From: a virus
Taxonomy: Duplodnaviria > Caudoviricetes
DNA: 64,000 nt
Direction: 5' to 3' (one strand)
IMG/VR virus record: IMGVR_UViG_3300005611_000014
Coordinates: 6,080-70,079 of that record
Made by a program: the position numbers and the translations under genes. Position 1 is the first letter of the stretch. Each line of letters opens with the position of its first letter. The notes under the pieces are model-generated. The model saw only the letters and a program-made list of their open reading frames with translations. It had not been told where the DNA came from and ran no database searches. Shown here piece after piece: positions 157 to 56,527 of this stretch.

Positions 157-2754
157 ATGCTTCATATTCGTTTTACAGAATCAAATGACGTACCTGTTGT
201 ATTACTCTGTAGTCCTTCTTCTTTTAAAACAGAATTGATCCAAAAAAACTACCTATCACATTTAGATGAAAAAGGAATCATAGCAGTAAATCTAGAGTAT
301 AACGAAAATAACAAAGCTCCTGTTAAAGACGTAGCTTTACCTTTCTTAACCGAAGAATTACTGCCTACTTTAGTACAATTAGAAACTAAGCTAATTTTAG
401 TTAATGATGCACACTACTTTAAAATTTTAACAAAAGAACGAAAGGTTACATTAGTACACGGTACAGTGTTTCCTTGTAAGATTTCTGGATTTGAGCAGTT
501 CAATGTATCTTACATACCTAGTGCGACAAGTGCCTATTACAATCCAGATATAAAAGAACAAATACTCTTTTCTCTGAATAAAATTAATGACTATTTACTG
601 GGTACACTTACTGACGCGCCTACTATAAATATTAAGAAACTATATAGAGAGCAATTAGCAGAAATAACCCAAGCTCTTAATGAATTAAGTATAGAGCCTA
701 AAGTATTTGTAGATATAGAAGGTTTCTCTTTAAATTTCTGGGAAGCAGGTATTGCTACATTTGCTTTAGCTAAAGATTCCTTAAATAGTGTAGCTATTCA
801 ATGTGACTACGTTATTGATCCTGAAGATCCAAATAAAGGTATCTACTCCCCTTGCCTAGAAATAAGAGAGTTATTTAAAAACTTCCTTATAAACTATAAA
901 GGTGAGCTGGTATTTCACAACTGTTATTACGATCTAGAAAGTATAATTTTTACTTTATTTATGGATGGATGGTCAGACATAGATGGTAGAAAAAACGCTA
1001 CAGACCTACTAGGAAATAAAACACACGATACTAGACTGATAGCCTATTTAAGCCTTAATGGTACAAGTAGACCTAAACTGGATTTGAAAACATTGGCTTA
1101 CCCTTATTTGGGTAATTACGGTATAGACGTAACAGATATACGTCTTCAAAGCTTGGATGACTTACTACATTATAATGGTATGGATACACTGGCTACCGCA
1201 TATGTATACGGTAAGTACTATCCTATTATGGTGGCAGATAAACAAGAAGACATCTATAAGGAGTTATTTAAAGGAGGTATTCCTTTATACTTAGATGTAG
1301 AAATGACAGGCTTACCTTTAAACCCTGAAACAGTTAAAGAAGTTACAGCTAAACTCACAACTATACAAGCAGATTACTTAGCAAAGTTACATAAGTCCCC
1401 TGTAATCATAGATTACACAGACGTACTTATGCGTAAAGAGTCTGATAAAATGCACAGTAAGTGGAAACAAAAAACAGCACCAATAGAAGCGTTTAATTAT
1501 ATTAAATTTAAGCCCTCTTCCCCTGTACAATTATGTGACTTAATTTATAACACACTTGAGTATCCAGTATTAGATAAAACTAAATCAGGTAATCCTTCTA
1601 CTAAAACTAAACATTTAGAAAAACTACTAAATATTACTACAGATGCTGAAAATAAAGAGTTACTTACTAACCTCATAGGTTATAAAGAACTCTCTACTAT
1701 TATGTCGATCTTTATTAATGCTTTTAATAATAAAGTTGTAGATAAAGGCGATGGTAGGGTTTACTTACATAGTAGCTTTAACCAAGCAGGTACTGTAAGT
1801 GGTCGCTTAAGCAGTGCTAATGTAAATCTTCAAAACATTCCAAGCACAGGTACAGATTATGCTTCTCTTATAAAATCCTGTATTGATCCTCCACCGGGAT
1901 ATTTATTTGTAGGTGCAGACTTTGCATCCCTTGAAGATAGAATATCTGCATTAACTACTAAAGATGAAAATAAATTAAAAATCTACATTGATGGCTTTGA
2001 TGGACATAGCCTTAGAGCTTACAGTTATTTTACTGATCAGATGCCTGACATTGATCCTAATAGCGTAGAATCCATTAACTCGATAGCAGATAAATACAAA
2101 CAACTTAGACAGGACTCTAAACCTATTACTTTCCTTAAGACCTATAAAGGTAAAGCTTATGGTTTAATGCATACAGTCGGGTTAGATAAGGATACTGCAG
2201 AGCGTGTAGATAAGGCTTACCATGAGCTTTATAAAACTTCCGATGAATGGGTTAACGCAAAATTAAAACAAGCTACAGAAGACGGTTACGCTACCGTAGC
2301 TTTTGGTTTACGTGTTAGGTGTGAAGCTTTAAAAGGAATCTACCTTGATATTGATAGATTACCGCCTAAACTTGAAGCACTAACCCGAACAATAGCAAAT
2401 GCGTTCGGGCAATCTTATGGTTTATTAAACAATCGAGCAGGTATTAGTTTACGTAAAAAGGCAATGACAAGTCCTTTTAAAAACTCTATATTGTTCGCTC
2501 CTCACATTCATGACGCACAGTATTTCTTAATTAAAGAAGATATAGCTGTCCTTGAATGGTTAAATAACGAACTAGTTACAGAAATGTGCTGGCAAAATTT
2601 ACCTGAAATTCAACATCCCATTGTAGGCTTAGGAGGCCAATTAGACATTTTTTACCCTACTTGGGCTAAATCCGTGTCTTTACCAAATAATGCTACACAG
2701 GATGAAATAAAGGCTATATGCCTTAAACATGCAGAGGAATTAAAAAACCCATGA
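157..2754 (+). CDS. DNA polymerase, family A, with 3'-5' exonuclease (N4 gp39-like)
   Basis: Exonuclease motifs VFVDIEG, FHNCYYDL and YNGMDT. Polymerase motifs TVSGRLSSANVNLQNIP, A (ADFASLEDRI), B (RQDSKPITFLKTYKG) and C (PHIHDAQYF). Confidence 0.95.
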   Translation: MLHIRFTESNDVPVVLLCSPSSFKTELIQKNYLSHLDEKGIIAVNLEYNENNKAPVKDVALPFLTEELLPTLVQLETKLILVNDAHYFKILTKERKVTLVHGTVFPCKISGFEQFNVSYIPSATSAYYNPDIKEQILFSLNKINDYLLGTLTDAPTINIKKLYREQLAEITQALNELSIEPKVFVDIEGFSLNFWEAGIATFALAKDSLNSVAIQCDYVIDPEDPNKGIYSPCLEIRELFKNFLINYKGELVFHNCYYDLESIIFTLFMDGWSDIDGRKNATDLLGNKTHDTRLIAYLSLNGTSRPKLDLKTLAYPYLGNYGIDVTDIRLQSLDDLLHYNGMDTLATAYVYGKYYPIMVADKQEDIYKELFKGGIPLYLDVEMTGLPLNPETVKEVTAKLTTIQADYLAKLHKSPVIIDYTDVLMRKESDKMHSKWKQKTAPIEAFNYIKFKPSSPVQLCDLIYNTLEYPVLDKTKSGNPSTKTKHLEKLLNITTDAENKELLTNLIGYKELSTIMSIFINAFNNKVVDKGDGRVYLHSSFNQAGTVSGRLSSANVNLQNIPSTGTDYASLIKSCIDPPPGYLFVGADFASLEDRISALTTKDENKLKIYIDGFDGHSLRAYSYFTDQMPDIDPNSVESINSIADKYKQLRQDSKPITFLKTYKGKAYGLMHTVGLDKDTAERVDKAYHELYKTSDEWVNAKLKQATEDGYATVAFGLRVRCEALKGIYLDIDRLPPKLEALTRTIANAFGQSYGLLNNRAGISLRKKAMTSPFKNSILFAPHIHDAQYFLIKEDIAVLEWLNNELVTEMCWQNLPEIQHPIVGLGGQLDIFYPTWAKSVSLPNNATQDEIKAICLKHAEELKNP

Positions 2755-3749
2755 TCACTAATAATAATGGTTTATCTCTTTCGATGGCAGCGTGGTTAGC
2801 TAGTAACGACTACGATTACCAACCTGATGCAATCAGTGCTACTTCACTTATGAAGCCTTTACGTCAAATCGTACTAGCTGAACGTGTACCGGAAATACAT
2901 AAACGCGCATTAGACGTAACAGAACTTACTAAAAGCAGAACAGGTACAAGCGTACATGACAGCATAGAAGGTATCTGGAACAACCCAGAAAAATTAGCTA
3001 AAGCTTTTAAAACATTACCTGAAACTCAACATTTAATGGAAGAGTACGATAACGATATATCTGCATTCGTAGATATTAATCCAGAAACAAAAACAGATAA
3101 GCCTATTGTGGTTTATATGGAGCAACGTAAATACAAAACTGTTCAAGGTTTTACCGTATCCGGTAAATACGATTTTGTGTTTAATGGTCAACTAGAAGAT
3201 CATAAAACAACAAGTGCTTATTCATATACCTCTGGAAGTAAAGCAGCAGATTATATACTGCAAGGTAGTATTTATAGATGGTTAGCTCCTGACATAATCA
3301 CAAAAGATACGATTGCTATCAATTTTGTTTTTACAGATTGGAGTGCAAAAACTGCATCTAAAAACCCAGCTTATCCTCAACAAGCAGCTTTAACAGAATA
3401 CTATTCCCTTCTCCCGCTTGAACAAGTAGAAAATTGGATAGAAAAACGTATTCAAGATATACGTAAATTAGACAAACTTGAGCAAGAAGATATTCCTGAA
3501 TGTACAGCAGAAGAGTTATGGATGAATCCTTCTTCATACAAGTACTATGCTGATCCAAATAAAACAGACAGGGCTACTAAAGACTTTAAACAAGATATGG
3601 CTGGCGCGTATGAACATCTAGCTATCAAAGGTAAAGGGATAGTACTAGAAATAAAGTCACCTGCTAAAGCTTGCTCCTATTGCCCTGCTTCTACTATATG
3701 CAAACAATATGTCTCATTAGTAGATCAAGGTTTAATCGAAACCCTTTAA
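2751..3749 (+). CDS. PD-(D/E)xK nuclease, RecB/Cas4-like (N4 gp42-like)
   Basis: GTSVHDSIE helix, SGKYDFVFNGQLEDHKTT catalytic motif, and a C-terminal Cys cluster (EC...CSYCPASTIC). ATGA overlap with the polymerase. Confidence 0.8.
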   Translation: MITNNNGLSLSMAAWLASNDYDYQPDAISATSLMKPLRQIVLAERVPEIHKRALDVTELTKSRTGTSVHDSIEGIWNNPEKLAKAFKTLPETQHLMEEYDNDISAFVDINPETKTDKPIVVYMEQRKYKTVQGFTVSGKYDFVFNGQLEDHKTTSAYSYTSGSKAADYILQGSIYRWLAPDIITKDTIAINFVFTDWSAKTASKNPAYPQQAALTEYYSLLPLEQVENWIEKRIQDIRKLDKLEQEDIPECTAEELWMNPSSYKYYADPNKTDRATKDFKQDMAGAYEHLAIKGKGIVLEIKSPAKACSYCPASTICKQYVSLVDQGLIETL

Positions 3750-5931: not shown

Positions 5932-6663
5932 ATGACTAAAAGAATGGTATTAATTGGAGGCAAGTCTACTACAGGTAAAACAGCTTCTTTACGTAATATT
6001 AATGACCCTAAAGGAGTCATGTATCTTAATTGTGAAACAGGTAAAGATTTACCTTTCCGTTTTCCAAATAAAGATGAGAAATTCCTGTCATTAATTGTAA
6101 CTGATCCTTACCAAGTATTTCAGGCTTTAGACGAAGCTGAAGAAATGGAAGAAATACATACTGTAGTGATAGATACCTTAACTTATTTAATGGGTATGTT
6201 TGAAACACAATACGTTCTAGCAGCAGCCGATACACAAAAAGGTTGGGGCAATTACGCAGAGTTTTTCAAAAAACTACACCAGTATTACTTTGCTAAAAGT
6301 ACTAAATCCATTATTGTATTGGCGCATACTGCAGACATCTATAACAAAAAAGAAATGGTTATGGAGTCTATGGTTAAAGTCAAAGGCTCTACTATGAATG
6401 AAGGAGTAGAAGCCGCATATTCTACTGTTATCGCTACCAAGAAAGTAGCTATTTCTGAGTTAGAAAAATATGACAATCCTAATTTAAACATTTCTGATAA
6501 AGAAAAAAGATTAGGTTATAAACATGTTTTCCAAACTCAGATTACAGAAGACAGCATTAATGAGCGAATACGTGCAAACATGGGTATGTGGGATGATGAA
6601 GAAACCTACATAGATAACGATGTTCAAATTGTTATAGATCGGTTGCATGAGTACTATGACTGA
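5932..6663 (+). CDS. AAA-family ATPase, Sak4-like (N4 gp44-like)
   Basis: Walker A GKSTTGKT and Walker B VVIDTLT. Lies between primase and SSB as in N4. Confidence 0.8.
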   Translation: MTKRMVLIGGKSTTGKTASLRNINDPKGVMYLNCETGKDLPFRFPNKDEKFLSLIVTDPYQVFQALDEAEEMEEIHTVVIDTLTYLMGMFETQYVLAAADTQKGWGNYAEFFKKLHQYYFAKSTKSIIVLAHTADIYNKKEMVMESMVKVKGSTMNEGVEAAYSTVIATKKVAISELEKYDNPNLNISDKEKRLGYKHVFQTQITEDSINERIRANMGMWDDEETYIDNDVQIVIDRLHEYYD

Positions 6664-6805
6664 TCATCCTAAGTTTTGCTGTAACCAGCCCTTAATACCC
6701 TTAAGAAGTCAGTATTGCCTCCTTTGCAGTATTTGCGGGAAAGAATACTATTGGCCTCTTAAACCAAAACAAAAACCGTTAATTAAATCACAAAGGTAAA
6801 CATAT

Positions 6806-7573
6806 ATGTCTCTATTAAAAAACGTAGTAACAAGTGAGAACGTAGAAGAAGAAAAAGATGTCGTAGGTGGAGGAGGTAAAAAAGTTTTACCTTCCGGTAT
6901 TTATGATGCAACAGTCAATCTAGCTTATATTATTGAATCAGCTAAAGGCGCACTAGCAGTAGTACTTGATTTGCTAGTAGGTGAAGATACGGTAAGCCAA
7001 ACTATTTATTTCACTAATAGAAATAAAGAAGCTACCTATACCAAAAATGGTAAAACATTTTGGATGCCGGGACACGCTGTACTCAATAGCTTGTCTTTAT
7101 TGGCTTGCGGTAAGGACTTGTTATCTGAAGATTTACAAACTCCTGATAAAACTTTAATGATTTTCGATTTTGAATCTAAAAAAGAGCTACCTAAAGAAGT
7201 ACCTGTACTGACTGAATGGAAAGACGCTAAAGTAAAAGTAGCTATTATGGATGTACTTGAGCCAGTTAATAAATTAAATAAAGATACAAATGAGTACGAG
7301 CCTTCATACGATGCACAAGGTAACTTAATGACTCGTCAATTTAATGACTTTGTTAAATTTATGCGTCAACGTGATAGCTTGACTACTACCGAAATCAAAA
7401 ATGAAGAAACGGAAGCCACATATGCAACTGAATGGTTAGCTAAGTGGGAAGATAAACAGTCAGATAAGACTACTAAGGTTTCTCAAACAATTGCTGTGGG
7501 CGCAAGTTCTGGCAGCATGGTAAATAGTCCTAGCGGTGCACCTAAGCCAAGTGGCGGCAAGTTGTTCAGCTAA
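6806..7573 (+). CDS. Single-stranded DNA-binding protein (N4 gp45-like)
   Basis: Begins with EEEKDVVGGGG..LPSGIYDATVNLAY, has TIYFTNRNKEATYTKNGKTFWMPG, and ends in a flexible tail with LFS. Synteny agrees. Confidence 0.8.
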   Translation: MSLLKNVVTSENVEEEKDVVGGGGKKVLPSGIYDATVNLAYIIESAKGALAVVLDLLVGEDTVSQTIYFTNRNKEATYTKNGKTFWMPGHAVLNSLSLLACGKDLLSEDLQTPDKTLMIFDFESKKELPKEVPVLTEWKDAKVKVAIMDVLEPVNKLNKDTNEYEPSYDAQGNLMTRQFNDFVKFMRQRDSLTTTEIKNEETEATYATEWLAKWEDKQSDKTTKVSQTIAVGASSGSMVNSPSGAPKPSGGKLFS

Positions 7574-7580
7574 GCTATAC

Positions 7581-7603
7581 AAGAGGGCGTTATGTCCTCT
7601 TTT
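7581..7603 (+). terminator. Probable intrinsic terminator after the SSB gene
   Basis: Stem AAGAGGGC / GTCCTCTT with loop GTTAT, followed by a short T run. Confidence 0.5.
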
Positions 7604-7631
7604 CCTTAACTCTATTTTAAAATGGTGAATC

Positions 7632-7946
7632 ATGATTATTACCTTGAAACAAGATGACATTGAAAACGCACTAATTAACTACGTAAATAGTTTACTGGGT
7701 GCACCTGTAAATCCAGAAAATACATCTATCTCTATTACAGCAGGTAGAGGTGTTAATGGACACTCTGCAGAAATTGAAATCGCTGCACCAAAAGCAGTAA
7801 ATACAAAACGTGTACCTGTTACATACAACCACGCGGCTGAGGTTCCTATCAAAGAAGAAGTAACTACTGTTATGGATTCGGTAGAAGAAACGCCAGAAGT
7901 AGAAGAAGAAGTTACACCTTCACGTAATCTATTTAGCGCAGACTAG
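7632..7946 (+). CDS. Conserved hypothetical protein (N4 gp46-like)
   Basis: MIITLKQDDIENALINYV...ITAGRGVNGHSAEIEI with an acidic tail. Follows SSB as in N4-like phages. Confidence 0.6.
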   Translation: MIITLKQDDIENALINYVNSLLGAPVNPENTSISITAGRGVNGHSAEIEIAAPKAVNTKRVPVTYNHAAEVPIKEEVTTVMDSVEETPEVEEEVTPSRNLFSAD

Positions 7947-8113
7947 TGTTTGTATTCTGGATCATAGGTGTGATTTTGCTATGTATTCTGGGACTATTTG
8001 GAGCAGTATTTATACCGCTCCTTATAGCAGGTCTTGCAACAATAGCAGTATTCGCTTTAATTTATGCTATAGCTAGAGACTATAAAGAATACAAAGATAA
8101 GGGAGACCCCTGA
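7946..8113 (+). CDS. Small membrane protein, 55 aa, about two TM helices (not in the supplied ORF track)
   Basis: GTG at 7946 overlaps the upstream TAG. VFVFWIIGVILLCILGLFGAVFIPLLIAGLATIAVFALIYAIARDYKEYKDKGDP. TGA at 8111-8113 abuts the vRNAP stop. Confidence 0.65.
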   Translation: MFVFWIIGVILLCILGLFGAVFIPLLIAGLATIAVFALIYAIARDYKEYKDKGDP

Positions 8114-11100
8114 TTATCTAGGGGTCAAACTTGCTTCCATTGCCGGAATTTGCAATAAGTTATCTAAGTGTCCCAGCGGTAACAGAGAAGATCTATTCGT
8201 AACCCCTGAAGTGGAAAAAGCAGTATCCATTATATCCGGTGCATCATAACTTAATAGTTGCTGCGCCCATAATGTAGCAAGTACATTGACAGGTTTATCT
8301 ACAAGTTGTCTTAGAATGACTTTCTGTATTCGCAAGAAGAACTTACTGAACATGACAAAACCCATATCGTTAGCGTACTGTAATGCAGCGTGTGTAGGTA
8401 AATCATAGTTAACAAAAGTCTCCACAACGTAATTAATAGCTTCTGCTTTTTCCATCCCTGTTTCTTGTTTGTGTTTATACAAAGCATATCTTGCTACAAA
8501 ATCACTCAATTGAGTAGCATCTCTTAAAACTTTATAAGTTTTAGTGTCATGTGTAATAAACAACTGACTAGTTACTGATTTAATTATTTCCGGTGTACGG
8601 GAAACAATAGGATCAGTTAATTTATCCAAACCACTCAAATATGTAAAATTGTTTTCTTCCATTTCCACATCTTCAATAATAGCTTGAAGTACACCTTCGT
8701 CAATTAAATCCTTAACAGGATTCTTCGCAATTTCTTCCTCAATACGACTAATACGGCTCTTAATATTTAGTCTTTCACTAGATGTTAAACGCTTGTTGGC
8801 TTGTAATTCTAATTCTAATTTTCCTAATGTATTTCGTAATTCTTTATAATCCAGTACTGCTCTTGTTCCTTCCATACTCCATTTAGTTTGTTTGGCTAGA
8901 GAAATACCTTCTACGGTGTTAACAATAAAATTACTTAAAATATTACCCATTAAAACGAAACCAGACTTAACAACAATAATATCTTTAATTAACTTCATAA
9001 TATCTTGCCAGATAACTTCTGCTTTAAGAATAGTAGAATTGTTACCCAGTAAAGCCATACCTCTACCTATTGCATTAACTAAGGATTTTTCAGAGTTTTG
9101 TAATTTATTATCAGCCCACTGACCAATAGTTAATTTACGTTGTCCGAAAACCAAAGGAATTAAACCTTCTCGTACAGGTATGCCCCCTAAAGCAGCTATA
9201 TTAAATTTACTTTCTAAGAGTCGTCTAGTATCAGAAGGAAGCAAACGATAAAATTCTTCATCTCCTGTGAGTAAAGTAAATTCAGTAGACTCTCTGGCAT
9301 AGTTAGCATCAAAATCATCCACTAATAAATCTATAGCTTTGCTGTTAATCATAGCTGAATTATTTTTGTCTATGATGGCACCAAACATATTACCCAGTAC
9401 TTCATCGAAGTGGGTGTTCATTTGCATAACATTCTTTTTCACATACTCTGTACCAGAGTATCTATAGACAGGAGAAGAGTAAGTATAGTCACCTACTGTC
9501 GTTAAATGACTAGGTGTAAGCGTATAATCATGTGCTTGGTTTAATCTATCTGCTTCTGTTTGTACGGCTGCATTGGCTTCGTTACTTAAACCAGTACCCT
9601 TACTTTGCAAACTGGTTAAACTAAATATACCAGACATATATTTACGTAAGCCGCCTACGTCATTTACCATTAAGGTAACGGATTCTGTTGACCCGGTTGC
9701 AGGATCAGGAGGCAACTGTGTTACTTCTTTGTAGTTCTTACGTATAAGATCTGCTTTATCTTCAGGTGTAGCAGCAATAGCTAACGCAACATTAGGATTA
9801 GTTTCTTCTTTTACATATCCTTTAATCATTAAAGATTCTTGATCAAAGAAGTTCTCTTTTTTAGATTTCTCTTTGTGTAAGTTGTACATCTCCATCGTAA
9901 AGAGTAAACCATTATCTGTTTCAGACTTACCTGCTTTTAATTCTTTACGATAGATTTCCTTAATCTTTTCAGCATTTGCTTTATTACTGCTAGTATTCAA
10001 AGTATATAACGTAATGAGTCTATCTATAATAGGCTGCACATCTTCTGCATTGTTTACTGTAACGTGGCTATTATTTACTGCTCTCGCTATGTTATGCGCA
10101 TTATTTAGTGTTCTACCTGCAGCTAATAGCGCAACACCTTCACTATTAAGAGAAGCTAAACTTCTAGCTTGAGCTTTATAATAAGCAAGAGTATTAGTGT
10201 CATTAGTTATTGCACGTAAGTCTCTTTCAGTAGAAGCAATAGCTCTATCCCTAGCAGCTTGGTTAGTAATAACATCATAGACTTGTTTAAAGTTACCTGC
10301 ATTACTACGTAGTAATACGCCTGCATCGGATTTCAATAAACTGTAGTACACTGCATCTTTTTCTTCAGCCGTAAGTATAGAGCCGTATTTGCTTTGTATT
10401 GCTTTGGTTGCCTGCAAAGAAGCATTGGCTCTTTCCCGTTCTACATAGTTAGAGCTATAGCGAAGCATGGCAGTAAACACGGCATTTTTAGAAGTGTTGC
10501 CTAGCATCTCTCTAGCAATACTTTTAGTAAAGCCGTTCTTTGCTATACCCATTCTTCTAGACCATTCATTTAAAACAGAAGCGGTACTTTCTAAAGTTAA
10601 TCCTGTTTTATTTAAAACGAGGTCTAGTGCTGGTGTCACAACAGGTACGTCCTTACCTAATACTTTACCTTCAGGAAATAATTTAGCGAGAGGTGCACGA
10701 ACATAATCACTAAGCGCACCTAACGCTTTGCTGTTAACAGTGTTTATAAACTTAGCAGATTTACTTAACCTAGTTAGATTATCATTTTGGGTATTTACTA
10801 ATTTTTGAGCCAAGATAAGTAAGGTTTCATTTCCATTCAAACCTTGTATACCTAATCGTTTGGCTTCAAAAGCTGAAAGCATATCTCCTAAGATACTTAG
10901 TAAATGGTTAGCTGCATTTACAAAAATGTTTATACCTTTATATTTACTTGGCTCAATTCTACTTAAATCAGTAGAGTTCATGGCTTCAGTAATTTCAGGT
11001 TTAGCAAGGGCTTTCATTAACTTTTCATTTGTTAATCCAAACGCAAAAAACTCATGCAAGTAGTGGTTTCTGTTTTGTTCTAAAGTTACACCATTAACTG

Positions 11101-14100
11101 CTAATTCTTTATTTTGTTTAAACGCTTTAGTATTTCTAAAAATATATTCGTAGAGTTTTTGCGCTTCTTCTTTTTCAGATGCAGTAGGATTAGGATTAGG
11201 ATAGAAATCTTCAGCAGTAATATTACGCTCTGCCGCCATAAATAATTTACGTATTTTCTTAAGCGTGACAGCATCGCCTTTACCATCTAATAAGTGATGA
11301 CTGATATGGTGCAGTAATTCGTGTACATACACTTCCGGTGCAGATAAGAAAGACGTATTAGCTCCTGTAGCTGTGCCTAGAGCGATTTCTATTAAAGGTC
11401 TATCTCTGGCATGGAATCTACCCATAGTAACGTCAGACGTATTATCTATAGCCACATTGATAGGCTTCATAACATTCTGTATCAGCGTATTTACTACGCC
11501 TTTCAAATGTTGGCTATGTTGTGTACTTACGCCCCGTGGATCAGCCATTTCAAGTTGATCGTACAAATTCAAAACATTGTTAGTATCCACTGCTTGAGTA
11601 GAAGATGTATTGAATGTTCCTTGCGAAGAAGTAGAACCAAATAAATCTAATTGATTTTGTTTATCTAAGGCACGTTGTATATCTTTAAGCCCGGTATCTA
11701 CTAAACTTTCTACCTGTTCTTCTTCTGTTTTACCTTTAGGTTTTAAAGGAGGAGTATCACCATCCACTTTATATGCAGCATTATGTAAGAAATACTGATC
11801 CACCGATTTAATCTGATCAAACTTGGCACGATTATTTAGCAAGCTTGTATTAATAGCCTGTGCTTCATTTTTAATTTCTTCAAGAACTGAATCAGTAGCG
11901 TCATAAGGTACTCCATCAAAAGTACTTATTGCTTCTTGTAAAAGACTTGTGTATTCAGGATTATTTAAAGCTTCCGTAAACATGTTATACATACGGTGAT
12001 AAGGGTTATTCTTAACGTCTTTCAATAAATTAAGAATAGTTTTATTCGTATTTATTACACCTTCTCTAGCTGTAACAACAGAATGTCCGTTAGAATCATG
12101 CTGGTTAGTAGCAGGAGAATGAGAAATAGTATCTAAAGTGGTAGCACCATCTATGTTATGGATGGACATTACAGGTAAACCTACACCTAATGCGGAAAGT
12201 GTACGACTTCTTCCTGTACCTGCTAAAGATAGTGAACGTGTAACCTTGTTTTCTATTTCCCCTTTACTATTTTGAGTAACTCTATTGGAAGCAAAAGAGT
12301 AAGTATCTACCCCTTCTTGAATTTGATCCAACAAAGCTAATTCGCTTTCTGTTAAGTTAGGATTGCTGCCTGCTGCTTCTAGTGTAGAAGATAAAGCGGA
12401 AATAAAAGTATAAGGAGTAGGGTTAGTACTTCCTTTCTTAGCTGCAGTGTATTCTGCACCATAAGTACTTTTAACAAAGCTTTTAGGAGAAGCAGCAATT
12501 ACTTTATGTAGGTTCTTTAAAGCTTCTAAACTATCAGCTTTATTGCCTATTTTGGTTTGTGTTCCACCTAATACACTACGCAGCATACCTATCTTAGTAG
12601 CTATAGAGGCATCTTCTGTAGCTGAAGATACGCCTTTGATAGACTTGTATAAGTCTACGCCTTCACCTTCTACAGAGTTAAGTAAATCAAAGTTACGAAA
12701 TACACCAATCTTTTCTACTTGTTCTTTTATTTTTTCTACTCTAGAAGTAGATAGATCAGTAACGATACCGTTGTTTATGTTGCTATTCATTGTTGCAACT
12801 AATTCAACTGCTTCAGCTAAACTTCTAGGACTAACAGTATCTATCTTATTATCTCTAATATACTTCTGTTCTGCAGCACTAGCTTTATTGCTGCCTAGCT
12901 TTTGAATTAAAGCATTAAAGTATATTTTGTAATAGCTCGCTATATAACCTTTAGAGAGAGTAATTGCCATCTTATTCATGGACTCTCTGTTATATATAAA
13001 TGTACCTAGTACTTCATTAGCAGGAGCTTGCAACGATAGTTCGTAGATAGCTTTCATTGCTACACGCATTCTAAATTCTGTATTCTTAGGTAACAATTTA
13101 GGCTTAACAATAGCCTTTTTATTTTTAAATGTTACATAAGGGAAGTAATTAAAATCAGGAGCAACATCAGTAAAATCTCTATAAAACTGATTCACTTTAT
13201 CTACGTACTCATTAAATTCAGTCATTTCTTCTCTAGATGTAGGTACACGTATAAGCTTCTCATACATTTCATCTATATGGTAAGTAACTGCATCTGTTGC
13301 AGCCGTACCTAATCCTGCCCCAAAACCAAACATAGTAGTCGGTAGCTTTCCTGCGCTTCTATCAAAAGAGAAAACGTTAGTAATGCTTTCTTTTAAGGAG
13401 ATTAAAGCAGGGTGTATTTCTTTACGGCTTAATTTAAATACAGCTCTGAAATATTTAACTACCCCTGGAACTGAAGCGTAACCATCCGGTGAGCTTACAA
13501 ATTCACTTGAGCCTATCATGTTATCTAGGTATTCAGGGAAACTATCACCTAATACTTTTGTCCATGCCTCACTTACTTTAGAGTAAATATCTTTATTACC
13601 TTCTTGAGTAATCCATTCATCAAAAGACATATTAGGATCTACGTAGAAACCACCTGCAGCCATTAGCTCAAAGAAGTTAGCACCATTGATTCCCATTAAG
13701 CCAATACCAATAACTACACCGTTTGTAGTACCGTCAGCGTCTACACGTAAAGTGCTTTCAAACTCACCATCAGGATTATATTTAGCTAGCTCACTTAGAA
13801 CGTATAAGCCATCAGCATTCGCACCGTATTTTTCAGCAAACTCTATAATTGTATTCTCATCTTCTGCACTTACTGTTTCTTCAGTACTTGCTCTAGCATA
13901 TGCGTCTGAAGCAGTTTTATACAGTTCTGAGTTATAGACTTCATCAAAAACAGGAGCAATATCCTTAAGCTTCATGTTATTGGTTTTATACCCAAGCTTA
14001 TCTAGAATGCTTGATTTATACGAAAGCATCTGTGCAGTATTTTGTCCATTAACTGTCCGTTTAAAATCGGCTAAACCAGATAAAGCTCTGTGTAACTTAG

Positions 14101-17100
14101 AAGTCTGTGGATTGAATATAGAGCTTTCATAACCAAAACGTCTATGTGTCCACGCAACTACTTTAAGATAAAAAGGTTTAGTACCTTGTTCGGTTGTTTT
14201 ATAGAAATCCAGTAAGTTATCAACTTCCCGTACAAGTCCTGTATTTTTACCATTTTCGATACTGCCTACTTTATTCGCAGGCATTTTACTACGATCCACT
14301 ACAACACCTGTTAAACGGTCTTGTGTTTCTGTAGAGAATTTAACAAAAGTATGGCCTGCGTCATTAAAGGTATTGGCGTAATTAGATGCCTTGAGCATTT
14401 TAGCTCTAGTCTCTTCAGGCAAACCTTTACCTCTGTTATTTTTAGAACTAACTGAGCTATACGGCTTAAGAGAAGGAGCTTTAGCTTTACTCTTTAGATT
14501 AAACATTTCACCTAGTAGATTAGGTGCAGCATCTATAGGATTAGTGTGTACATCTGCTTTAGTCTTATCTACTTGATAGAAGGTAATACTAAACGTACTA
14601 TCATAAGTTTTAGTGTCCGATCCAGTTAAGTCATTTAATACTGCACTAGATACATTAGTAAGTTTAACTAGTTTTTGGTTAGCTAAAAATGTCATAGCTA
14701 GATTACCAATACTACTTTCTAGTCTACTTTGAAAAGAAGCAGAATTACCTTTATCTGCTTTTAAACCAAGAATACGTAGGGTATTTTTACCTATATCTTC
14801 CGCAGCAAGTTCTTTGTTATCACCTGCTTCTTCAATAAATGCTCTTTCTGCTTCAGTAACAGGATGATCTTCGTGTCTACCTAAAATACTATTAACAGTA
14901 GGATCATCTAATACTTTCATGATGCGTTTATCATTATTAAGCATTTCTACTGTTGCACCGTATACTGCAGATATGAAGTTGTCTGAGTAATTTTTATTAT
15001 CTTCTGTAAATAGTAGAGTTGGAGATTTTCTAAATACTTCTACCCTACGGAAAGCATCACTTTCAGCTACTTTAACTACTTTCTTAAATGCTTCTCTAAA
15101 CGTAGCTTCGTTTGCTAGAAACTCAGTAGTTGCAGCAAGTCTATTAGCAGGACTTGTATTTTCATCTATGTTTTTAAAATACTTCTGAATAAAACCTTTA
15201 GTGTTTTCTCTAGCAATATCCATGAATGGCGCAGAGTATTGACGTAAATAGCTATTGCCTTTCTTGGCTAATATACGTGCAGGAGCAATAGCCGCTTTAC
15301 CAGAAGCAGTTAACGGTGAAAGTCTATTTAGGAAAACATCTTTGATTTCTCTAAAAGCAGTGGTGTCTACCGCTTCTTCTTCCTCTACGGTTGATTCAGC
15401 AGCAGGAGTTTCTTCTACGCTGTCTACAGGAGCATCTATTACAGTTTCTGTAGTTGCGGGATTGTCTCCTTCTACGTTTATAACAGTAGTGTTTTTTGTG
15501 TTGGTTTCAGAGAAAGCTGCTTCTTCCAGTTCTCTTTTAGTGTTACGAATAACATTACGTAGAACGTCAATCGCATTACCCTGTTTTTCGGTAGGAACGC
15601 CTCCAGTAGCAGCAATATTGTCCCTTATACTTTTTAGTTTGGTAACAGCCTTATTATACTCTTCTTGAGGAGTACCCGGAGCAGGAAAGGTTATGTCGTC
15701 TTCACTATCTACTTCTTCTGCAGGTACGTCAATAACAGTTTCATTTGTACTGTTACTTTCTGCAGAAATAGGCGCTTCTTCTTCTGGAAGATCTATGACT
15801 GTACTCTGGTTAGGATTAGTAACAGGAGCTTTAGCTAGGTTGTCATTATTCACTGCGGATAGATCTGCAACTTCAAGTATATCGCTTGTTTTAAGTTTCT
15901 CTGAAATAATACGAGTTTCGTCTAAAACGCCTTTAAGTGCAGCAGCTTCTTTTTCCATAGTAGCAACTAGACCGCCTGATCTACCATCTATGTATGCTTC
16001 GCCTGTTAAACCTTTAGTATGATTACGGTAGGCAGCAATAGCAGAAGTATATTCAGCAGACGTTGAACCAAACTTATTATATGCATCATATGCCGCTCTA
16101 GCTAATTGGCTTTTCTTTGTATGCGTATCTGTAAAGCGAGTTAATTCTTCTAAACTCTTATTAAAGCTTTCTGTTTTACCTTGTAAAGCAGCACCTTTAG
16201 CAGAGTCATAGTAATACGCAGCACCACGCCAATTCTCCCCATTAAGTTTACCGCCTTCTAGTATAACTTTACTGGTTTTAGGAATAGAGCCATTACCTGT
16301 ACGATTAAGTTCGTTTATAGCTTTACGTGCTTTATATAAAATAGTTAAGTCAGCTCTAGCTTCAGCACTTAAGTTGCTACTAGCTTTTATTGATTTACCT
16401 AAGTTAGCTAAAGTTTTATCATCAAACACTGTAGGATCTGAACCAAATACAGCATACGCTTCCTGTGTACTAATACCGTTAGCTTTCTTGCCTTCTTTTA
16501 AATCTTTAATAAGAGATGCATTAGCATTTTGCTGGTAAGATGTAACCAGTATTCCTACGCTTGCTTGATTCTTATTAGCTGCGGTTGCTTGTGCAAGTAT
16601 AGCTTTCCGTTCTGCAGGATTAGCATCAGGCTTTGAGAGTATTTCCTTGGCTGCTTTATCTAATCTTTCTGTCTCTTCGTTAGCCAATATACTTGTAGTA
16701 TTAATATAATCTTTAATTACTTGGGGTTCTTGGTTCTTAGTAAATACTTTACTTGCTACTCTACTATCTAGTAATCGAGTAACTACTGCACTTTTATTTT
16801 CTACAGGCGTATTTATTAAATCTTTAACCTTATTAGCTTTAACTGTAGCAATTACTGCATCTGTTAATTCTTTATCTTGCTGTACACCATCTACAATATT
16901 AGCTGCTTTACTTACTGCAGTGTTAGCAGTACTTACTGTACCGGAAGTTGTACCTCCCGTAACTGCACCAACTACCGCACCAATACCAGCTTGAGAAGCA
17001 ACACCTGCATCCAGTTTCTGATTTTCGTTAATGGTTCCTTTAATAGCAACATTGCTTGCTAACTGTCCAGCAGCAGATTGACCAAATTCTTCAGCACCTT

Positions 17101-18181
17101 CGTTAAGTGTACCTTTAAGTGTATCACCTAATATTTTACCCAGACCTTGCTTATCAAGTAAGTTACCTAATAACTTATCTGTTCCAGTAAATTTAGATAT
17201 TAATCCCGCAGCCGCACCAGATAGTAAGAAGGTATTAATAAAGCCATTATTACTTAGATCTCGTACTATTTCTTCGTGGTCTTCTCCTTTAGCAATACGT
17301 TCTCGATAAATAGGAGAGTTTTCCATAAGGAATGCGATGTTCTCTGCATTCTTTTCTGTATATTGGTTTATTTCATTTGCTACCTGTACAGCATTAGATG
17401 AGCCTTCAATGGCAGCAATGGAACCAAGAGCAGCAAGAGAAGCCTTTTTATTAGCCATCTGTTTAGCTTGGTTTCGTATCTGCAGCTCTGCCGCTTTTCT
17501 TGCTTCGCCTGTTATTTCTTTACCAATAGAGGCATAGAGCTTTCCTGATTTAGCAGCTTCGGTAATACTCTTTTCTATCTTTTTACGTACAAATCCTGCA
17601 ACACCAGCAGGTGCTACAAAGCTTAGAGAAGACTCTGTACCCATAGAGAGCAAAGCTGCAGGATTCTTTAATACTTCAGAGCCGCCATCTAACGCTCTAC
17701 CTAAAAAGTCCTGAACATGATCTACAACAGAAGCACTACCTTCTATTTGATCAAAAGCAATATCTCTTTCTTGTTCTTTTCGTTCAATGTTTTTAGCTAG
17801 TCTAGCTTCTTGATAAAGCAGTTTATCTGATTTACCTGAATCCAGTAATTCATTAACTCTACCAAAGCCTTCTAAAATATTAGTGGCATCTTCTATAAAG
17901 CCTCCACTTAATAGGTTAGCTGTACCTGCAACAGTTTCCCCTATACTTAGTGCAGACTTAGTTAGATTTATACCTAAATCCGTAACTCGTTCACCGCTTG
18001 TTCTATTTTGCAGTAATGCGTTTTCTTTTGCCGCATTAGACAAATCTACTGAAGATTGAAATAGTTTCTGTTCTGCGGCACGAGTATTAGCTGCTAAACC
18101 ATCTAAAGTAGCTAACTTTCTACTAAGAGCAGAATCTACTTCCTGTTCTTTTGAAGGCTTACGAGGTAAAAAATCTTCCAT
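8114..18181 (-). CDS. Virion-encapsidated RNA polymerase (N4 gp50-like vRNAP), 3355 aa
   Basis: Size and position match. No Cys seen. Motifs: HRRFGY (T/DxxGR region), A (DADGTTNG), B (RSAGKLPTTMFGFGAG) and C (SIHNIDG). C-terminal VHELLH and a terminal region containing ETFVNYDLP. Confidence 0.95.
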   Translation of the reverse strand: MEDFLPRKPSKEQEVDSALSRKLATLDGLAANTRAAEQKLFQSSVDLSNAAKENALLQNRTSGERVTDLGINLTKSALSIGETVAGTANLLSGGFIEDATNILEGFGRVNELLDSGKSDKLLYQEARLAKNIERKEQERDIAFDQIEGSASVVDHVQDFLGRALDGGSEVLKNPAALLSMGTESSLSFVAPAGVAGFVRKKIEKSITEAAKSGKLYASIGKEITGEARKAAELQIRNQAKQMANKKASLAALGSIAAIEGSSNAVQVANEINQYTEKNAENIAFLMENSPIYRERIAKGEDHEEIVRDLSNNGFINTFLLSGAAAGLISKFTGTDKLLGNLLDKQGLGKILGDTLKGTLNEGAEEFGQSAAGQLASNVAIKGTINENQKLDAGVASQAGIGAVVGAVTGGTTSGTVSTANTAVSKAANIVDGVQQDKELTDAVIATVKANKVKDLINTPVENKSAVVTRLLDSRVASKVFTKNQEPQVIKDYINTTSILANEETERLDKAAKEILSKPDANPAERKAILAQATAANKNQASVGILVTSYQQNANASLIKDLKEGKKANGISTQEAYAVFGSDPTVFDDKTLANLGKSIKASSNLSAEARADLTILYKARKAINELNRTGNGSIPKTSKVILEGGKLNGENWRGAAYYYDSAKGAALQGKTESFNKSLEELTRFTDTHTKKSQLARAAYDAYNKFGSTSAEYTSAIAAYRNHTKGLTGEAYIDGRSGGLVATMEKEAAALKGVLDETRIISEKLKTSDILEVADLSAVNNDNLAKAPVTNPNQSTVIDLPEEEAPISAESNSTNETVIDVPAEEVDSEDDITFPAPGTPQEEYNKAVTKLKSIRDNIAATGGVPTEKQGNAIDVLRNVIRNTKRELEEAAFSETNTKNTTVINVEGDNPATTETVIDAPVDSVEETPAAESTVEEEEAVDTTAFREIKDVFLNRLSPLTASGKAAIAPARILAKKGNSYLRQYSAPFMDIARENTKGFIQKYFKNIDENTSPANRLAATTEFLANEATFREAFKKVVKVAESDAFRRVEVFRKSPTLLFTEDNKNYSDNFISAVYGATVEMLNNDKRIMKVLDDPTVNSILGRHEDHPVTEAERAFIEEAGDNKELAAEDIGKNTLRILGLKADKGNSASFQSRLESSIGNLAMTFLANQKLVKLTNVSSAVLNDLTGSDTKTYDSTFSITFYQVDKTKADVHTNPIDAAPNLLGEMFNLKSKAKAPSLKPYSSVSSKNNRGKGLPEETRAKMLKASNYANTFNDAGHTFVKFSTETQDRLTGVVVDRSKMPANKVGSIENGKNTGLVREVDNLLDFYKTTEQGTKPFYLKVVAWTHRRFGYESSIFNPQTSKLHRALSGLADFKRTVNGQNTAQMLSYKSSILDKLGYKTNNMKLKDIAPVFDEVYNSELYKTASDAYARASTEETVSAEDENTIIEFAEKYGANADGLYVLSELAKYNPDGEFESTLRVDADGTTNGVVIGIGLMGINGANFFELMAAGGFYVDPNMSFDEWITQEGNKDIYSKVSEAWTKVLGDSFPEYLDNMIGSSEFVSSPDGYASVPGVVKYFRAVFKLSRKEIHPALISLKESITNVFSFDRSAGKLPTTMFGFGAGLGTAATDAVTYHIDEMYEKLIRVPTSREEMTEFNEYVDKVNQFYRDFTDVAPDFNYFPYVTFKNKKAIVKPKLLPKNTEFRMRVAMKAIYELSLQAPANEVLGTFIYNRESMNKMAITLSKGYIASYYKIYFNALIQKLGSNKASAAEQKYIRDNKIDTVSPRSLAEAVELVATMNSNINNGIVTDLSTSRVEKIKEQVEKIGVFRNFDLLNSVEGEGVDLYKSIKGVSSATEDASIATKIGMLRSVLGGTQTKIGNKADSLEALKNLHKVIAASPKSFVKSTYGAEYTAAKKGSTNPTPYTFISALSSTLEAAGSNPNLTESELALLDQIQEGVDTYSFASNRVTQNSKGEIENKVTRSLSLAGTGRSRTLSALGVGLPVMSIHNIDGATTLDTISHSPATNQHDSNGHSVVTAREGVINTNKTILNLLKDVKNNPYHRMYNMFTEALNNPEYTSLLQEAISTFDGVPYDATDSVLEEIKNEAQAINTSLLNNRAKFDQIKSVDQYFLHNAAYKVDGDTPPLKPKGKTEEEQVESLVDTGLKDIQRALDKQNQLDLFGSTSSQGTFNTSSTQAVDTNNVLNLYDQLEMADPRGVSTQHSQHLKGVVNTLIQNVMKPINVAIDNTSDVTMGRFHARDRPLIEIALGTATGANTSFLSAPEVYVHELLHHISHHLLDGKGDAVTLKKIRKLFMAAERNITAEDFYPNPNPTASEKEEAQKLYEYIFRNTKAFKQNKELAVNGVTLEQNRNHYLHEFFAFGLTNEKLMKALAKPEITEAMNSTDLSRIEPSKYKGINIFVNAANHLLSILGDMLSAFEAKRLGIQGLNGNETLLILAQKLVNTQNDNLTRLSKSAKFINTVNSKALGALSDYVRAPLAKLFPEGKVLGKDVPVVTPALDLVLNKTGLTLESTASVLNEWSRRMGIAKNGFTKSIAREMLGNTSKNAVFTAMLRYSSNYVERERANASLQATKAIQSKYGSILTAEEKDAVYYSLLKSDAGVLLRSNAGNFKQVYDVITNQAARDRAIASTERDLRAITNDTNTLAYYKAQARSLASLNSEGVALLAAGRTLNNAHNIARAVNNSHVTVNNAEDVQPIIDRLITLYTLNTSSNKANAEKIKEIYRKELKAGKSETDNGLLFTMEMYNLHKEKSKKENFFDQESLMIKGYVKEETNPNVALAIAATPEDKADLIRKNYKEVTQLPPDPATGSTESVTLMVNDVGGLRKYMSGIFSLTSLQSKGTGLSNEANAAVQTEADRLNQAHDYTLTPSHLTTVGDYTYSSPVYRYSGTEYVKKNVMQMNTHFDEVLGNMFGAIIDKNNSAMINSKAIDLLVDDFDANYARESTEFTLLTGDEEFYRLLPSDTRRLLESKFNIAALGGIPVREGLIPLVFGQRKLTIGQWADNKLQNSEKSLVNAIGRGMALLGNNSTILKAEVIWQDIMKLIKDIIVVKSGFVLMGNILSNFIVNTVEGISLAKQTKWSMEGTRAVLDYKELRNTLGKLELELQANKRLTSSERLNIKSRISRIEEEIAKNPVKDLIDEGVLQAIIEDVEMEENNFTYLSGLDKLTDPIVSRTPEIIKSVTSQLFITHDTKTYKVLRDATQLSDFVARYALYKHKQETGMEKAEAINYVVETFVNYDLPTHAALQYANDMGFVMFSKFFLRIQKVILRQLVDKPVNVLATLWAQQLLSYDAPDIMDTAFSTSGVTNRSSLLPLGHLDNLLQIPAMEASLTPR

Positions 18182-18198
18182 ATAACACCTAAGTTAAA

Positions 18199-20007
18199 TT
18201 ATTTTAATCGAGAAACAGCAGCCTTGATTTCTTCTAATGAAGAATCTTTTGTAAGATTTTTCAAGGCATCAGGTATATCTGATTTCTTTATTCCTGTTTT
18301 TATAGAAGATTTTAACAGGTTACTGACATCTGAACTCAAACTATCATATGTAAAAGTAAATGGATCAGCGTTACCTAAAGCTCGCGCAATCTCTTTACTG
18401 GAAACAGGTGAGCCTTTAGATAGAGCTGAAGCCAGTACATCACCTTTACCTGCTCTATCCAGCACAGCATATAGATCCATGATTTCTTTATTCTCACCTA
18501 TATCTACTAAAGAGCGTTTATTAGGTACGAGTGTAGATACAGGAGTATCTGGTTTTTCTACTGCAGGGGTTTCTACTGCTTTTTCAACAGGCTTACTTAC
18601 AGGCTTTGCTTTAGCTGCAATTTCTGTTAAATCTTTTTCTTTTTGTACAACAGAAGTAGGAGAAGTCTTACTTTCCGGTTTACCGTATACAACTTCTAAT
18701 GCAGCCTTATGTGCAGCAAGAAATGAAGGGTTTTTATGAATATCTACAGCAGCCAGTGAAGTTTTACCATCAGTAGTTAATTGCTGCATGTACTCGCTTT
18801 TAAATTGTGAAAGTGCAACATCAATGGTTTGTCTTTTAGTTAAAAACTCACTTTGTTTAGCAAGAAGCTTTTCTTTATTAGCTTGCGTCTGCTTTATATC
18901 ATTCATGTGCGTTTTGACAGAAGATTCCACAGTACTCTGGTCTAGCCAATTATCTACATCATTGGGTGCGCGTGAAAGGATAGCAGTGATGTCTTTCATA
19001 GTAATAGGGCGACCCATTACACCTATCTCATTAAATTTTACTTTTTCTGCAGCAGAAATAATATTTCCTACAATGGCTCTACTGTCTTCAGGAGTGTAGC
19101 CAAACTGTTCACTTAATTTAGTAAAAGTAGTTAAGTCATCTGCTGCTACTGGCTCAGAAGAGTTGAAAGCATCTAGTTCAGCCGTAATTTTAGACAAGTC
19201 TGTAGATACTTTTGCAAGTTCAGCTCCTACCGTATTGGCTTCTAAACCAATTAGTCTTTCGCCTTCACTTAAAGCTGCCGCTTCACTAGTTGTAGGTGTA
19301 CGATCCAAAGTAGTTAATTGGAATTTCGCATCATACACTTCTTTTCTAACATCAGGATCTAAATTAGGATCAGATAGTAAGTTATCTAGTGTAGTCATAG
19401 AGCCATTAATATTACCTGTATTCTGTCCACTAAACAGGGCTTCAGCAACAAACGCTTTATTGCGCTTAATTGTTTTTTCTTTTTCTGCTGTAGCTAAGGT
19501 ATTACGTAGTGCTTCGCCTGAAGGACTTTTAATATCCGCAGCAATACGTTTTGCACCTGTTAAATCACCAGCATTATACAGTTCCTGTGCTTTAGCAATT
19601 GCACCTTTGTACTGATTATCTGCTAATGCGTCTTGCTGAGTAGACGCTCTAAGTAAATCTTGGTTTTTATTATATTGTTTATCCCTTACCTGCTTATCTA
19701 AAGTAGTAAGTAATTGCCCTGCTTTAAAAGCATCAGAACCAAATGCATTTTTTAAGTCTACTGAATTTAGTTTATCTTTAAGAATAGCGGCATCTTCTAG
19801 TGTATTTACTTTACTGACTTCTAAGGCAAAGTCTGTAAACCTTTTTTCAGCCGCAACAGCCTCTTGGTTTTTTACATCAGAATGTAAACCTGTAAGGGTA
19901 GCTACTGCATTATCTAAACCTGCAGTAATTTGTTTACTGGATTCCAGATATAAATTAGAGGCAGAGGCATTACTGTTTGTTTTAACTTGCTGAAAAGAAT
20001 TAGCCAT
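18199..20007 (-). CDS. Virion internal/ejection protein (N4 gp51-like)
   Basis: 602 aa, helical, Ala/Lys-rich, no Cys, immediately upstream of vRNAP. Confidence 0.65.
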   Translation of the reverse strand: MANSFQQVKTNSNASASNLYLESSKQITAGLDNAVATLTGLHSDVKNQEAVAAEKRFTDFALEVSKVNTLEDAAILKDKLNSVDLKNAFGSDAFKAGQLLTTLDKQVRDKQYNKNQDLLRASTQQDALADNQYKGAIAKAQELYNAGDLTGAKRIAADIKSPSGEALRNTLATAEKEKTIKRNKAFVAEALFSGQNTGNINGSMTTLDNLLSDPNLDPDVRKEVYDAKFQLTTLDRTPTTSEAAALSEGERLIGLEANTVGAELAKVSTDLSKITAELDAFNSSEPVAADDLTTFTKLSEQFGYTPEDSRAIVGNIISAAEKVKFNEIGVMGRPITMKDITAILSRAPNDVDNWLDQSTVESSVKTHMNDIKQTQANKEKLLAKQSEFLTKRQTIDVALSQFKSEYMQQLTTDGKTSLAAVDIHKNPSFLAAHKAALEVVYGKPESKTSPTSVVQKEKDLTEIAAKAKPVSKPVEKAVETPAVEKPDTPVSTLVPNKRSLVDIGENKEIMDLYAVLDRAGKGDVLASALSKGSPVSSKEIARALGNADPFTFTYDSLSSDVSNLLKSSIKTGIKKSDIPDALKNLTKDSSLEEIKAAVSRLK

Positions 20008-20014
20008 GTAGCAC

Positions 20015-20443
20015 CTATAGTTTTAATTTACGACTTTCTATTTCATCATTTGAAACAGTGCCTGCTTGTAGTTGATTAGCCTGTTTAGCTAATGAAGCCA
20101 TTCGTGTATTGTATTCACTAGCACTAGATCGTGCATTGAATAAATCTATTTTCTTATTATGTTTAAACTCTTTTTTAGCTTGAGACAAACCTTTAAAACC
20201 TAAGAAAGTTTGACCAAGATTGCCTACTAAGTTTAGTGCAGCCAACGAGTTTTTAAACGCATCTGATCCAAGAAAATCAGTTAGTCCATCTTTTTTACCA
20301 AAGTCTAAACTATTGCTGCCGAAGGTATTAGCATCAGTTTTAAATGCAGTGTCTACTGCAGATTCTGAAGGTTTAGCAAATAAGTCAAAACTGCTAAAGT
20401 TATTTTTTTCTTTTTCTTTAAAGAAGCTGAAATCATCTTCCAT
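20015..20443 (-). CDS. Small virion/ejection protein (N4 gp52-like)
   Basis: 142 aa, no Cys, amphipathic segment LAALNLVGNLGQTFLGFKGLSQAKKEF. Synteny agrees. Confidence 0.65.
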   Translation of the reverse strand: MEDDFSFFKEKEKNNFSSFDLFAKPSESAVDTAFKTDANTFGSNSLDFGKKDGLTDFLGSDAFKNSLAALNLVGNLGQTFLGFKGLSQAKKEFKHNKKIDLFNARSSASEYNTRMASLAKQANQLQAGTVSNDEIESRKLKL

Positions 20444-55531: not shown

Positions 55532-56527
55532 ATGCAATCAATAGAACAGTATACAAACCAGCAGTATATCGAAATATGTTTAGCAAATACGGTTAGAGGT
55601 ATGGATAGAAAGACTTGGACTAAACGTCTAGGTCTAGCGTATGAAATACTAAATAAAGATTGCTCTGTAGCTGAGCTGTTAGCAGAGTATGACGTAAAAG
55701 AACCAATCATGTTTAGAAAGATTTATTCATATATTAAATCCAATAAACCTGTAGGTGAGTTTACTGGATCGTTGGATTTCACAGCTAGTGGTTTGCAGTT
55801 ATTAGCAATTGGTACAGGATGTATTAAAACAGCCGAGAGAACCAATTTAATCTTCACCAATAACCGTGAAGATGCGTATGAGTATGCTGCAAAAGAAATG
55901 ACGGAGACACTAGGAGAAGAGGTCACAAGGGATATTATTAAAAATCCTTTAATGACTACGTTCTACGGCAGTACTCAAAAGCCTTTAGAGTTGTTAGGTC
56001 AAGAGGCAATGCCTGCTTATCAAGACTTACTAGAGAATAGCTTCACAGGAGCGTATTTAGGCTTCCAGTTAATTCAACAGTGTTGGAATAAAGAAACCAC
56101 TAGTCATGAGTTCTATATGCCTGATGGTTTCCATGTAGTACTTCCGGTAACGGAAGTGAAGACAGTGGAAATAGAGTATGAGAAGTGGGGCGTTAAGATT
56201 CCATATTCTTACTCTGTAGAAACCAAGCAAGATAAAGGTATTAGTCTTGCTGCTAATGTAGTTCAAGCTATGGATGGCTATGTATGCAGGGAAATAATAC
56301 GAGAATTGCATGAAGATGGTGTTCCAGTATGGCCTATTCATGACTGTTTCATGGTTAAGATAAAGCACATGGAGCATTTAAGACTAGTGGCTAGAAAAGT
56401 ACTAGCAAAAGTATGTAAGCAGAATCTGCTAGTAGATATATTAAGTCAATTAACAGGAGAAGATCAGGACTTTGAGAAAGTAGATTTAAGCCAATCAATA
56501 GAAATGGCTGAATACATATTATCTTAA
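55532..56527 (+). CDS. RNA polymerase II subunit 2 (N4 gp16-like)
   Basis: Motif A LDFTASGLQLL, motif B RDIIKNPLMTTFYGS, AANVVQAMDG and motif C PIHDCF. Confidence 0.92.
   Translation: MQSIEQYTNQQYIEICLANTVRGMDRKTWTKRLGLAYEILNKDCSVAELLAEYDVKEPIMFRKIYSYIKSNKPVGEFTGSLDFTASGLQLLAIGTGCIKTAERTNLIFTNNREDAYEYAAKEMTETLGEEVTRDIIKNPLMTTFYGSTQKPLELLGQEAMPAYQDLLENSFTGAYLGFQLIQQCWNKETTSHEFYMPDGFHVVLPVTEVKTVEIEYEKWGVKIPYSYSVETKQDKGISLAANVVQAMDGYVCREIIRELHEDGVPVWPIHDCFMVKIKHMEHLRLVARKVLAKVCKQNLLVDILSQLTGEDQDFEKVDLSQSIEMAEYILS

Follow-up and report, generated by a model that had tools for sequence, protein, structure and literature searches.

The virion RNA polymerase (vRNAP) encoded by this phage is very probably an intact N4-like enzyme in which phenylalanine, as a family-typical alternative to tyrosine, occupies the motif B position held by Y639 in phage T7 and Y678 in phage N4. 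No special adaptation of the phage would be involved: the aromatic ring appears to be what is conserved at this position, and the hydroxyl would be dispensable in vivo.

The 64,000-base window analysed here comes from an IMG/VR record of 70,079 bases (about 70 kb), estimated to be 94% complete and with a G+C content of 37%, and it holds the vRNAP gene on its minus strand (8114-18181) as an intact 10,068-base open reading frame for 3355 amino acids. Searched with phmmer against solved structures, the protein matches only the full-length vRNAP chains of coliphage N4 (E 2.9e-29), through residues 41-452 in the N-terminal part, 1295-1560 around motif A in the core of the polymerase, and 2555-3303 in the C-terminal part. 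Its length lies within that of the giant single-ORF type of about 3300-3900 residues, its relatives measuring 3325-3823 residues, and it contains no cysteine, as do 142 of 152 family representatives; the absence of cysteine is a described hallmark of vRNAPs, those of N4, DEV and roseophages among them. Gene order around it is that of the N4 map, with a replication module, SSB, vRNAP and structural genes: PHROG matches identify a DNA polymerase, an exonuclease, a primase, a Sak4-like protein and an SSB on the plus strand upstream of the vRNAP gene, and a PHROG-2220 protein, a structural protein, a major head protein and a portal on the minus strand behind it. The 602-residue protein adjoining the vRNAP (18199-20007, minus strand), at the position of the N4 gp51 ejection protein, matched no PHROG family at E 1e-5. 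Because the matches to the N4 structures, the N4-type neighbours and the lack of cysteine all point the same way, the gene is, as far as its sequence can tell, an N4 gp50-like vRNAP of a Schitoviridae-type phage, and the enzyme most likely works like that of N4, being injected with the DNA and transcribing the early genes. The C-terminal half of the protein carries an HExxH motif (HELLH, residues 2287-2291; 11309-11323, minus strand), a similar HELTH is visible in its four nearest homologues, and a zinc-binding motif has been predicted in the corresponding region of DEV gp71.

The central T7-like polymerase domain (residues 1000-2190; 11612-15184, minus strand) is the equivalent of the N4 mini-vRNAP (N4 residues 998-2103). 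A 43-sequence profile aligns to the mini-vRNAP in hhalign over 858 columns with a probability of 99.95% (E 3.5e-38), pairing R1348 of the query with N4 R424, K1362 with K437, D1483 with D559, G1488 with G564, R1608 with R666, K1612 with K670, F1620 with Y678, and D2029 with D951; R424, D559, K670, Y678 and D951 are the catalytic residues of N4 vRNAP given by Zhao et al. 2009. Direct alignment of the family profile to T7 RNA polymerase was not significant in hhalign (probability 0.5%), and for that reason all T7 equivalences used here were drawn by motif or by way of N4. R1348 (14138-14140, minus strand) is the Arg of the T/DxxGR region, corresponding to N4 R424 and T7 R425, and an Arg is present there in 169 of 170 family sequences. 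A loss of this Arg in most of the family had been suggested by an hmmalign pairing with N4 'RVG'; it was ruled out by hhalign, which places the invariant family Arg on N4 R424 and T7 R425. Motif A, VDADGTTNG (13718-13744, minus strand), contains the catalytic D1483 and, five residues after it, G1488, to which motif spacing matches T7 G542 (DGSCSG). DNA polymerases fill this Gly position with a steric gate. Motif C, QHDSNG (12086-12103, minus strand), provides H2028 and the catalytic D2029, aligned by hhalign with N4 F950 and D951. Upstream of it in the protein lies SIHNIDG (12146-12166, minus strand), whose H2008 is the putative equivalent of T7 H784 by its likeness to T7 FVHSQDG and is paired by hhalign with N4 G926.

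Motif B, RSAGKLPTTMFGFGAG, occupies 13313-13360 on the minus strand and reads R-S-A-G-K-L-P-T-T-M-F-G-F-G-A-G (residues 1608-1623), with F1620, at the position of T7 Y639 and N4 Y678, encoded by TTT at 13322-13324 (minus strand). An earlier note on this DNA had reported this motif and its Phe codon (13324-13322), which re-translation reproduces exactly, and had given a motif B for N4 that agrees with gp50 of NC_008720, namely RGIAKNPLTITIYGSG, in which R666, K670 and Y678 are mini-vRNAP numbers and Y678 is Y1675 of the full protein. Its gapless placement of the Phe on the N4 Tyr also stands: F1620 falls on Y678 in two profile-profile alignments, the one described above and one made with a five-sequence profile of the query central domain (hhalign probability 99.55%), and in motif B the alignment is free of gaps and anchored by the invariant R, K and G. 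No sign of a different register for motif B was seen among 243 aligned family sequences, in which the column holds only F or Y. The T7-like spacing R-x3-K-x7-[Y/F]-G is thereby kept with its R, K and G, Phe standing in place of Tyr. The note was likewise right that the phage's own RNAP II keeps the Tyr, which is present in motif B TRDIIKNPLMTTFYGS (55928-55972) of an RNAP II large-subunit-like gene (55532-56527, plus strand; motif C IHDCF). All assigned catalytic residues are kept and the base of the O helix carries an aromatic residue; by these alignments the polymerase core is intact. The query motif B has several unusual residues elsewhere: three belong to the query alone among 170 sequences (G at position 4, L at 6 and M at 10), and of two others F at position 11 is found in 12 of the 170 and G at position 12 in 8.

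How common is Phe at the Y678 column? A profile search of 1.84 billion representatives returned 1714 family members at E <=0.001, and the column was tabulated in the best 150 of these together with the query and P0002. Among these 152 nearest representatives 136 have F and 16 have Y, with no other residue, and among 73 loci covering the column, out of 76 found in a separate IMG/VR scan, 56 have F and 17 have Y; both environmental samples favour sequences that look like the query profile, itself built from Phe-type proteins. Adding 18 named phages to the 152 brings the counts to 139 F and 31 Y (n=170), again with nothing else. Phe is fixed in the cultured Pseudomonas schitoviruses examined: LIT1, LUZ7 and phCDa carry it, as do IMG/VR records putatively of the isolates PEV2, YH6, KPP21 and YH30. 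Across cultured lineages Tyr is far commoner, 25 of them being Tyr-type against three Pseudomonas-phage genera with Phe. The Tyr-type phages are N4, JWAlpha, Bp4, KpCHEMY26, FSL SP-058, six Vibrio phages, Acinetobacter XC38 and Presley, Erwinia MIF8, Ea9-2 and S6, Klebsiella P184, Possum, RiverRider, Burkholderia HN03, Pokken, RHph_N38, OLIVR1, DSS3phi2 and Pantoea G19; for scale, about 476 schitovirus records in INPHARED are found by primase match, about 101 of them Pseudomonas phages. The substitution was already on record, since the legend of Suppl. Fig. S2 in Ceyssens et al. 2010 (PMC3715699) speaks of a "Y678F substitution" in N4-like Pseudomonas phages. The earlier note had implied that Phe was a rarity peculiar to this enzyme, and had itself named a Phe common in the family as the observation that would overturn it; a common Phe is what the column survey shows, and the rarity is refuted by the 136 of 152 representatives, the 56 of 73 IMG/VR loci and the 2010 record. 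Even allowing for the sampling bias, Phe is plainly one of the major natural states at this column.

The family tree requires about 13 changes between Y and F at the column, a number one expects of a near-neutral polymorphism separated by a single transversion. The query itself sits apart from its relatives: its polymerase domain shares only 16-22% identity with every relative compared, and its branch, at 3.39 substitutions per site, far exceeds the median of 0.72. It falls in no well-supported clade, the Phe-majority clade of Migulavirinae and environmental relatives included, and FastTree and IQ-TREE place it differently; its Phe may have been inherited or gained independently. Close relatives were found neither by megablast against phages nor by a single-protein scan of IMG/VR, and a word-indexed protein search returned only four distant homologues of the vRNAP. 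The primase of the same phage (3767-5923, plus strand), in contrast to the vRNAP, shares about 52% identity with the primases of many cultured schitoviruses. By its sequence the query is a new member, and a strongly diverged one, of a Phe-type vRNAP group that had been recognised before, and its Phe is an ordinary trait of the family.

Could the Phe be something other than such a trait? That TTT is a sequencing or assembly error for TAT has next to nothing in its favour beyond the want of a close relative for comparison in the megablast search against phages and the IMG/VR scan, and we regard it as hardly credible: an ENA metagenome contig of 85 kb (ERZ27252103 k141_181293), perhaps not an independent data set, is identical over 14,068 bases including the TTT codon, the 10-kb reading frame is intact, and Phe is the commonest state in the nearest family sequences sampled. 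The same contig, 85,143 bases long and sharing window positions 6114-20181, may contain a genome end that is missing from the 70,079-base IMG/VR record, or else a terminal repeat. A more substantive proposal is that the Phe brings a biologically or practically relevant relaxation of 2'-group discrimination, whether through transcripts or primers of mixed ribo/deoxy make-up or through easy acceptance of 2'-F or 2'-OMe NTPs. The precedent in T7 on which the earlier note leaned is borne out, as the Y639F enzyme shows relaxed discrimination of the 2' group and accepts 2'-fluoro and 2'-amino NTPs (PMC4551944); the same role is assigned to N4 Y678, and the phenotype of N4 Y678F credited, in papers citing Kazmierczak 2002 (among them PMC3715699), and N4 vRNAP has been reported necessary for DNA replication. 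We nonetheless hold the proposal to be improbable for this enzyme. Working phages that form a large clade have this Phe, and its roughly 13 exchanges with Tyr fit near-neutrality better; nothing singles out the query phage; and H2008 is kept, the equivalent His in T7 being a residue that limits extension past a modified nucleotide, with H784A relieving termination after one (PMC4551944). Our literature search found no paper assaying the sugar selectivity of a natural Phe-type vRNAP.

The retained His raises a further possibility, that Phe-type vRNAPs keep their selectivity for rNTPs through a compensating sugar check by the H784-like His (H2008 in the query), the hydroxyl being lost only where that His is present. 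This His (query SIHNIDG, T7 FVHSQDG) sits 21-28 residues before the motif C Asp, and it is found in 180 of 182 Phe-type sequences, whereas Tyr-type sequences are mixed (H 19, Q 19, G 3, other 2; n about 43-44) and N4 pairs a Gly with its Tyr; two further alignments of the family, that of the IMG/VR loci among them, agree with this. In T7, moreover, it is Y639 and H784 that have been engineered as a pair to allow the use of 2'-modified NTPs (PMC4551944). Against this stand the phylogenetically independent pairs, of which 3-4 are concordant, none discordant and 6-7 tied (sign-test p 0.125-0.25); the equivalence to H784, which was drawn from motif resemblance, the family profile giving no significant hhalign match to T7; and a covariation scan for columns tracking Y/F, which returned nothing strong (the highest mutual information was 0.27, where the column scored with itself gives 0.69). 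The H784-like position was the best candidate for a covarying partner of Y/F, and as a significant partner it was set aside on the independent pairs. We consider compensation of this kind unlikely, if conceivable, and are similarly doubtful of the wider idea that Phe-type vRNAPs as a class have naturally relaxed 2'-group discrimination, with the conserved H784-like His as the remaining ribose check and the Phe-His pairing a functional coupling. On the sequences compared here, that pairing would count as a lead rather than a result. The N4 residues are Gly926 at the H784-like position and Phe950 just ahead of the motif C Asp, a site that is His in the query and in most of its relatives.

We thus favour the reading in which a family-typical Phe replaces Tyr in an otherwise N4-like enzyme. 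Because the column takes only Tyr or Phe, and has switched between them repeatedly across the family, we infer from this distribution alone that the needed feature would be an aromatic ring at the base of the O helix, beside the incoming nucleotide, and that the Tyr hydroxyl could be dispensed with in vivo. A likely aid to the preference for ribonucleotides is that the cell holds far more rNTP than dNTP; the Gly that leaves the steric-gate position open would still admit a 2'-OH, and other contacts probably add to rNTP selectivity.

Set beside the closest known enzymes, the query compares as follows. It shares with N4 gp50 its giant size, its lack of Cys, its gene neighbourhood and homology in the N-terminal, central and C-terminal parts, and the counterparts of R424, K437, D559, K670 and D951 are conserved over the 858 aligned columns; it differs in having Phe for Y678 and His for both G926 and F950, and the polymerase domains are only about 18% identical. 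The vRNAPs of LIT1, LUZ7, PEV2 and phCDa (Litunavirus, Luzseptimavirus and Shizishanvirus) naturally have Phe in place of Y678, in motifs such as RNVIKKPLTAMMFG, along with an HD motif C and the H784-like His, although they are only about 21-26% identical to the query, whose motif B is otherwise atypical. The engineered T7 enzymes Y639F and Y639F/H784A likewise have Phe for Tyr at the homologous place in motif B; both, however, are laboratory mutants of a Tyr-type enzyme, whereas the Phe of the query is natural. Since the H784-like His is kept, it is the Y639F single mutant, rather than the Y639F/H784A double mutant, that the query resembles.

For the phage itself little is at stake, as the Phe is no sign of an unusual enzyme. 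A modest wider interest lies in the existence in nature of a large clade of single-subunit RNA polymerases without the hydroxyl to which ribose discrimination is ascribed in T7 and N4, and relaxed selectivity becomes a biochemical question for the whole Phe-type clade rather than a property specific to the query. If discrimination were relaxed across the class, natural Phe-type enzymes, or variants of their His, would be ready scaffolds for the synthesis of modified RNA.
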